In this document: positions 54,501 to 54,711 of the stretch, one piece after another
Position numbering within the stretch: the first letter of the stretch is position 1
Layout: every line of letters begins with the position of its first letter
NCBI GenBank assembly: GCA_964016885.1
Contig: OZ024741.1
Location: forward strand, 264,554,001-264,618,000
DNA from: Eledone cirrhosa
Taxonomy: Eukaryota
Direction of reading: 5' to 3'
DNA: 64,000 bases
Translations under genes and position numbers: made by a program
The notes under the pieces: generated by a model
Databases searched by the model: none
The model's input: only the letters and a program-made list of their open reading frames with translations
What the model was told of the DNA's origin: nothing

Positions 54501-54711
54501 AACGAAGGAAGTGTGGTAAGGAACCAGATGGACCATAACGCACCAAAGTACTCAATACTTAGGGTAGTAGAGTGGGTAATAGGAACAAGTATGACCCCGA
54601 CGGCAGAGCTCAAGCCGTTTCGACGGCTATTTCTGGACTAATAGACTTCTGGTCCAGAAATAGCCGTCGAAACGGCTTGAGCTCTGCCGTCGGGGTCATA
54701 CTTGTTCCTAT
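54501..54711. mobile_element. (TA)n-embedded hairpin element, copy 2 (best preserved)
   Basis: 78-bp unique leader then a perfect 60-bp inverted repeat (54579-54638 / 54652-54711) with a 13-nt spacer; (TA)n on both sides. Confidence 0.85.

Follow-up and report, generated by a model that had tools for sequence, protein, structure and literature searches.

Hammerhead half-ribozyme hairpins in the genome of Eledone cirrhosa and their probable origin as short insertions of a Penelope-like element

Hairpins in the window and across the genome

The DNA analysed here (the window) is a stretch of 64,000 nucleotides from Eledone cirrhosa (assembly GCA_964016885.1, contig OZ024741.1, positions 264,554,001 to 264,618,000). 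It contains three copies of a hairpin element, each lying in (TA)n and each built from two inverted copies of the 3′ half of a hammerhead ribozyme. As set out below, these hairpins are almost certainly offshoots of a Penelope-like element (PLE), which encodes a reverse transcriptase (RT), and they probably represent short insertions of its RNA. The parts of copy 2, and then the three copies, are as follows.

54480 to 54500: (TA)n target, left flank
54501 to 54578, minus strand: PLE tail of 78 nt, between two putative RT start sites; only one arm carries it
54579 to 54641, minus strand: tail-bearing arm, hammerhead 3′ half in sense, C17 at 54599, terminus in the parental loop II
54642 to 54651, no strand: copy-specific junction of non-parental bases, part templated from the arm; a G adjoins the start of the right arm
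54652 to 54711, plus strand: tail-less arm, hammerhead 3′ half in sense, C17 at 54691
54712 to 54742: (TA)n target, right flank
52475 to 52662, no strand: copy 1, layout as copy 2, tail arm resected to the stem II strand
54501 to 54711: copy 2, comprising (TA)n, 78-nt unique stretch, 60-bp arm, 13-nt spacer, inverted arm, (TA)n
62464 to 62648, no strand: copy 3, layout as copy 2, tail-less arm from the main stop point with a non-parental G before it

Read outward, each arm gives a stem II 3′ strand, GAAA, stem III, GUC and a stem I 3′ strand. The preliminary description of the window had recognised this as a hammerhead 3′ half mirrored at stem II, with a palindromic loop on stem III, and both points are borne out. 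It had also noted that the CUGANGA half is absent, and none occurs in any of the three copies. The 5′ core and the stem I 5′ strand are missing, and a hammerhead 3′ half alone would not cleave itself, in keeping with the earlier view of the hairpin as catalytically dead. The three copies were said to share one layout and the same end points in (TA)n, which holds, but their centres differ. Likewise, the 60-bp arms are perfect over their full length in copy 2 (54579-54638 and 54652-54711, with a spacer of 13 nt), but not in copies 1 and 3, which align with copy 2 over the full length at 83% and 82%, centre gaps counted. The tail-less arm of copy 2 reaches the base of the extended stem I of the parent and there gives way to (TA)n; in copy 1, this arm begins with the A found at the main loop II stop point (see below). 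In copy 3 the stem I haplotypes differ between the two arms. The hairpin RNA is predicted to fold at about -136 to -144 kcal/mol.

A 22-mer from the arm had 54,367 exact matches in the 3.0 Gb of genome searched, against none for the reversed control, so its repetition is not due to chance. A strict hairpin pattern gave 21,239 strand matches, corresponding to at least 10,620 hairpins, or to some 14,000 if the 66 places counted by eye per first 100 rows are typical. On average there is one hairpin per 200-300 kb, with near-perfect arms of 45-60 bp. The hairpin sets used below (97 hairpins, 128 junctions, 155/163 hairpins and a stricter set for arm ends) mix several selections. Loci L031-L060, chosen by a CUGANGA pattern, were excluded from the junction and base-change counts, loci L267-L336 from the base-change counts and L267-L296 from one histogram. 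Exactly one tail was present in 155/163 hairpins, and in 145/155 the tail-less arm ran into (TA)≥3, the kind of insertion expected of the Hydra clade of PLEs (97/97 in an earlier, smaller set). The arms and the tail also occur, with many different centre joints, in read assemblies from other runs, none of whose contigs spans copy 2 itself; as a family, the hairpins are therefore not an assembly artefact. Since contigs of two other organisms (just three each) contain a few pieces with a parent-type continuation, the family is probably not confined to E. cirrhosa.

An autonomous parent with a complete hammerhead

The first 100 arms on contig C1, which fall within one 14-Mb region, are the sole sample of arm ends taken in genome order. 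Eighteen of them extend upstream into a common parental sequence that supplies the 5′ strand of stem I, a UUGANAA core and the 5′ strand of stem II. The tail likewise continues, in the parent, into a 5′ untranslated region (UTR) and an open reading frame (ORF), a pattern matched by 341 junctions in the genome, some of which lie in tandem arrays. Long head-to-head pairs contain RT-nuclease frames. The locus L095 carries an uninterrupted open frame of 786 codons flanked by two 495-bp repeats that are 99.4% alike, with a truncated tandem copy upstream and an adjacent inverted truncated copy with a tail. L095 and L091-L094 thus have the make-up of a PLE insertion unit, with a pseudo-long terminal repeat (pLTR) or partial tandem, an inverted truncated copy and a tail at one end. 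Tandem arrays of the parent have a period of about 3.5 kb, and the 138-nt sense unit of copy 2 matches a long parent copy (L257) at 135/138 positions.

From its first ATG the L095 protein has 719 amino acids, with the motifs RWR, DKT, YRDD, CxCx5C (CNCPDRSIC), a GIY-YIG-like motif, CxxC (CNLC) and CxH (CKH). This is the set by which the Hydra clade is defined (PMC8557442, section 11): an RWK-type motif, DKT rather than DKG, a CxCx5C linker, and CxxC and CxH around E and N. The length of the parent, about 3.5 kb, exceeds the figure of <3 kb that the same source gives as holding 'generally'. Among 8,000 scored candidates, 2,054 were homologous to the L095 protein at E<=0.001, the best being mostly about 40% identical. 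The nuclease was assigned by motif together with the precomputed PF01541 annotation of a homolog. The predicted fold (predicted local distance difference test score 84.5) found its best structural matches among telomerase reverse transcriptases (TERTs). Long parents exist for the same arm haplotypes as the hairpins, and it is near certain, judging from these sequences, that the hairpins derive from a Hydra-type PLE. The Naiad clade, which came into question through its preference for (TA)n and a 'half core' remark, was rejected because the nuclease of the parent is C-terminal. Other PLE-type RT and GIY-YIG frames, with long inverted pairs, lie near family copies in L100 (2962-6833) and L096 (2437-3480).

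The preliminary description had expected an intact parent with a CUGANGA core. The parent exists, as an autonomous PLE with a whole hammerhead, but its core is of the U3-A8 kind, a variant described in PLEs (PMC4209133). The two CUGANGA patterns returned 42 incidental matches and none, and found no parent. They miss it because of the U3-A8 core, so both the search and the refutation that had been built on CUGANGA would mislead; moreover, the gaps they allowed could not accommodate the long stem II. Counting the parental pattern, the appropriate test, gave 5,371 genomic matches with A8 and 31 with G8. By eye, U3 was present in 81/100 listed A8 copies, and the canonical C3-G8 pair in 6/31 G8 copies. 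When L095 and L086 were folded without constraints, a type I hammerhead resulted in which stem II is lengthened to about 20 bp. For L093 and L118, a nearly complete hammerhead lies within 0.3 kcal/mol. All the parts of a type I hammerhead are present, namely stems I-III (stem III of 5 bp, stems I and II long), a paired 3-8, GAAA and NUH.

Further hammerhead-like sequences occur near family copies. On the minus strand at 52680-52750 of the window, the (TA)n tract around copy 1 also contains the end of another repeat with CUGAAGA ... GAAA ... GUC, and similar ends flank L060 and L074; this is probably a second TA-targeting PLE family. Near position 1500 of L035, L040 and L056, loci chosen by the CUGANGA pattern, a different family with a canonical CUGANGA hammerhead and longer inverted pairs has the short hairpin unit joined into its ribozyme.

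Arm ends, centres and the proposed route of insertion

The hairpin arms end at a fixed place. Of the first 100 arms on C1, 82 were short, and 80 of these reached no more than 19 nt upstream of the stem II strand, with no end at all at 32-49 nt. Under stricter matching the ends peaked at 11-14 nt in tail and tail-less arms alike, although the complementary DNAs (cDNAs) of the two arms would differ by 78 nt, and just 3/216 reached beyond 20 nt. The same loop II end point recurs in single copies that have no partner. It is also found in 5/30 copies that include 90-820 nt of 5′UTR or ORF (L238, L239, L240, L243, L266), from which it follows that the template is the RNA of the autonomous element. 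At L239-L240 (C1:27009490-27010200) a hairpin is followed by head-to-tail units of 257 bp, each beginning at the stop point in loop II and reaching into the first few ORF codons; these would be repeated short cDNAs from the 5′ end of the messenger RNA (mRNA).

Arms are often preceded by a non-parental G. This was the case in 11/14 arms ending at the A at position 12 and in 16/28 ending at the next base, a G (binomial p = 2e-5 and 1e-4; G makes up 15% of insert interiors). Genome-wide, the same context showed 1,382 G against 408 A, even though inserts contain two A for every G. T>G point changes amount to only 2.1 per 1,000, and 1/50 long copies differed at this site. An edited A as the source of the G would be possible at the G-ending arms but not at the A-ending ones, and was rejected, there being no A>G excess in the arms. 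In full-length L1 insertions an extra G marks the cap (PMC11702581), and Penelope of D. virilis has an internal, TATA-less promoter (PMC2377424). Taken together, these junctions suggest a capped transcription start inside loop II. In all three loop types, the stop site resembles the initiator motif of Drosophila.

A second class of ends coincides with the scissile bond. Tail-bearing units with non-parental bases immediately before the bond gave 787 pattern matches, of which 70 were inspected (the first 30 in genome order and a further 40 picked by hand, 23 with a non-TT and 17 with a TT prefix). These comprised 36 point changes, 4 internal deletions, which were set aside, 17 single copies starting from the bond and 13 mini-hairpins. 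Fourteen of the first 30 were true starts at the bond, giving a class of about 370 copies in this context. In the 13 mini-hairpins the partner arm, which was not selected for, never extended beyond the bond and ended on it in 8; an extra G was present in 0/8 of the latter. We infer germ-line cleavage of some of the RNA by the ribozyme, with both arms then using the same RNA end. These ends may also reflect stalling of the RT at the G run or at stem III.

The centres, by comparison, are particular to each copy. There were 88 distinct centres among 97 hairpins and 61 among 68 young hairpins, whose arms differ by at most one base. The 128 junctions comprised 27 blunt joints, 37 with 1-4 nt of microhomology and 64 with insertions. 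The tail arm was the longer in 53 of 155 hairpins, the tail-less arm in 52, and 50 were equal. Because the subfamily base agrees between arms in 113/115 hairpins, both arms are likely to stem from one RNA. Some arms run on into the parental 5′UTR and ORF. In the adjacent hairpins L007/L025, the tail-less arms have a rare variant in common and the tail arms belong to different subfamilies.

We therefore favour, with a probability of about 0.7, an origin of the hairpins as short head-to-head PLE insertions, consisting of the ribozyme 3′ half and tail, each likely made anew by extension on both strands from one mRNA. This reading joins features seen in the genome (an RT/GIY-YIG parent, a complete U3-A8 hammerhead, (TA)n targeting, a single tail, copy-specific centres and a fixed stop) by the following proposed steps. 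Transcription would start inside loop II, so that the mRNA begins with the 3′ half of the ribozyme only. The PLE protein would nick both strands of a (TA)n tract and extend both nicks on one mRNA, copying it from two RT start sites that lie close to its 5′ end. This would yield two short cDNAs, of about 55 and 135 nt, that reach the capped end of the template and frequently acquire one extra base opposite the cap; their ends would then be joined after resection, by microhomology or with small insertions. In a minor class the template would be RNA already cut by the ribozyme, giving ends at the scissile bond. The resulting hairpins would be dead on arrival. It is about an even bet that the hairpins amount to a fossil map of 5′ ends, recording a promoter within the element's own hammerhead, one ribonucleoprotein that extends both strands, and insertion of cut RNA as well.

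Several observations weigh against this account. Two tails, or no tail at all, are present in 8/163 hairpins, and in a few (window copy 3, L025, L160) the arms are unlike. As to the parent, 19/100 listed copies have an unpaired C3.A8 core by eye, two of six parent loci folded (L062, L070) lack a full hammerhead even under constraints, Rfam had no match in the window or on the parent ribozyme, and Pfam and PDB-sequence searches gave no relevant match. The arm ends are spread over about 11-16 nt rather than placed at one base, and arms ending at 14 are followed by A in 20/22 cases, not G. Some of the extra Gs could have been templated from the other arm; excluding these leaves 9/12 at A ends and 11/23 at next-base ends (p = 2e-4 and 9e-3). 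Among 18 copies with a body of at least 1.5 kb, no start at the stop point was observed: in 15 the upstream ribozyme region is present, 2 begin further downstream and 1 is unclear. Seamless tandem joining, if assumed, would hide such starts in long copies. The scissile-bond class was counted at the bond itself, and the start site, the cap and the cleavage are all deduced from DNA junctions.

Rather than a capped start, the fixed stop could reflect blockage of the RT, or breakage of the RNA, where the long stem II has its apex, with the extra G added by terminal transferase activity or templated during repair. In the folded parent the stop point does lie only a few bases to the 3′ side of the apex, the spread of the arm ends over several bases would fit a block, and a few arms pass the apex (the 3/216 given above). 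However, an RT that had unwound the whole 3′ strand would be expected to meet no further barrier, the extra G is one base only and ribozyme-cut ends lack it (0/8), and the resemblance to an initiator motif recurs in all three loop types. We consider this explanation unlikely. Somewhat less probable is that a tail-primed cDNA folds back at its 3′ end and copies itself, once per insertion. Self-priming has been proposed for inverted PLE junctions (PMC3846280), 37/128 junctions have self-complementary microhomology, and the shared subfamily base (113/115) would follow from it. Fold-back predicts a tail arm at least as long as its partner, but the tail-less arm is the longer in 52/155 hairpins, in 23/68 young copies and in window copies 1 and 3, and single copies without a partner stop at the same loop II point. 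Fold-back of a single cDNA at stem II, as envisaged in the preliminary description, does not agree with these lengths.

That description had also supposed that the palindrome itself went on amplifying, and had proposed that a fixed centre would mean a palindromic master and a variable one inversion at each insertion. A non-autonomous master resembling a short interspersed nuclear element, its centres later scrambled by cruciform repair, would account for the uniform outer ends and size, the very high copy number and the few short centres that recur. The centres vary, however, even in young copies (61 distinct in 68), long parents have the same arm haplotypes, arms can take in 5′UTR and ORF, and base changes in 277 arms lack the A>G excess of an edited double-stranded template (9.0 per 1,000 against 10.3 for T>C). 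This option is largely refuted and we give it very little weight. A derivative of a DNA transposon, such as a miniature inverted-repeat transposable element (MITE) or Helentron, would also be short, bear inverted repeats and insert at TA; but the sequence belongs to an RT-encoding element, and the inverted repeat is internal with a varying junction. The L095 parent refutes it, and its probability is negligible. In particular, no ends are held in common with a DNA transposon, the hairpin ends being the two RT start sites.

As to the RNA, the earlier suggestion that it might serve as a trans-cleavage substrate is unlikely, because pairing between the arms (-125 kcal/mol) far outweighs pairing of an arm with the parental 5′ half (-24 kcal/mol). 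A palindromic frog repeat has been reported as an ADAR or Dicer substrate (PMC5625713), and the more than 10,000 near-perfect hairpins here would suit either enzyme wherever they are transcribed.

Relation to known systems and other features of the window

The Hydra clade (PMC8557442) resembles the parent in its single ORF with RT and C-terminal GIY-YIG, its (TA)n targeting, its pLTR hammerhead and its RWK-type, DKT and CxCx5C motifs. By eye, the parent protein is similar to Hydra proteins in the supplement of that paper (Craig et al. 2021). Four motif strings of the parent had no match in this supplement, where line breaks could hide one. The parent differs in length (about 3.5 kb against <3 kb), in its U3-A8 core and in a stem II of about 20 bp. 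Hydra-1_Obim is a separate family whose ribozyme sequence is unlike that of the parent.

Known PLE insertion units (PMC8557442, PMC3846280, PMC2377424) likewise have a head-to-head inverted copy, a tail at one end and partial tandems. Their tails measure 30-40 nt against 78 nt here, and they stop at scattered points, whereas most copies here stop at one fixed point in the ribozyme and so form a pure 200-bp hairpin. In vitro, Poseidon PAc (Frangieh et al. 2024, PMC11167929), from another clade, also nicks and extends both strands of an AT-rich target, and two internal RT start sites bound its tail, as proposed here. In that study no RNA read began or ended at the ribozyme cut, whereas genomic copies end there in the present family. 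The hammerheads of Schistosoma PLEs (Cervera and de la Pena 2014, PMC4209133) have in common with ours U3-A8, G10.1-C11.1, a palindromic loop 3 and close pairs in opposite orientation; they are minimal, with little or no stem III, whereas in the parent stem III has 5 bp and both other stems are long. Non-LTR retrozymes (bioRxiv 10.64898/2026.07.22.740005) are also short non-coding PLE derivatives with type I hammerhead sequence. They are arranged head-to-tail with a whole ribozyme per unit, whereas the hairpins are head-to-head, hold half a ribozyme and give no sign of replicating; as whole-hammerhead head-to-tail units are not present in the hairpins, this identity was rejected.

The inverted copy and the one-sided tail were thus already known; what is new, as far as the papers searched show, is the cap-marked fixed stop in the ribozyme and the class of cut ends. 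Our literature search, to which Repbase and Dfam were not added, found no description of this hairpin family or of a PLE-ribozyme start site. The origin of head-to-head inversions, the one-sided tails and hammerhead cleavage in vivo are stated to be open questions for PLEs (PMC8557442, PMC3846280, PMC11167929), and an antisense template has been proposed in one of these sources. The cap-like and cut-site ends would point to a sense template and to cleavage in vivo. They make these questions testable, with predictions at the level of single bases and a natural intact ORF. If the promoter does lie inside the ribozyme, this would be a simple way to stop the 5′ copy from cutting off the cap.

Positions 1-38000 of the window form one satellite array with a 34-bp period (about 1,180 copies, 78% matches). 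A low-complexity triplet region at 38300-51900 contains very long open frames of up to 2,785 codons; its minus strand reads as a mucin-like sequence of Thr-rich repeats, rich in N-S-T sequons and interspersed with Pro-rich blocks, and its plus strand as Gly-rich. It may be a gene or a minisatellite. Lastly, a perfect 32-bp palindrome with a 1-nt spacer lies at 62256-62320, with copy 3 at a distance of 140 bp. The end of another repeat follows this palindrome, which may be a similar inverted junction of another family.
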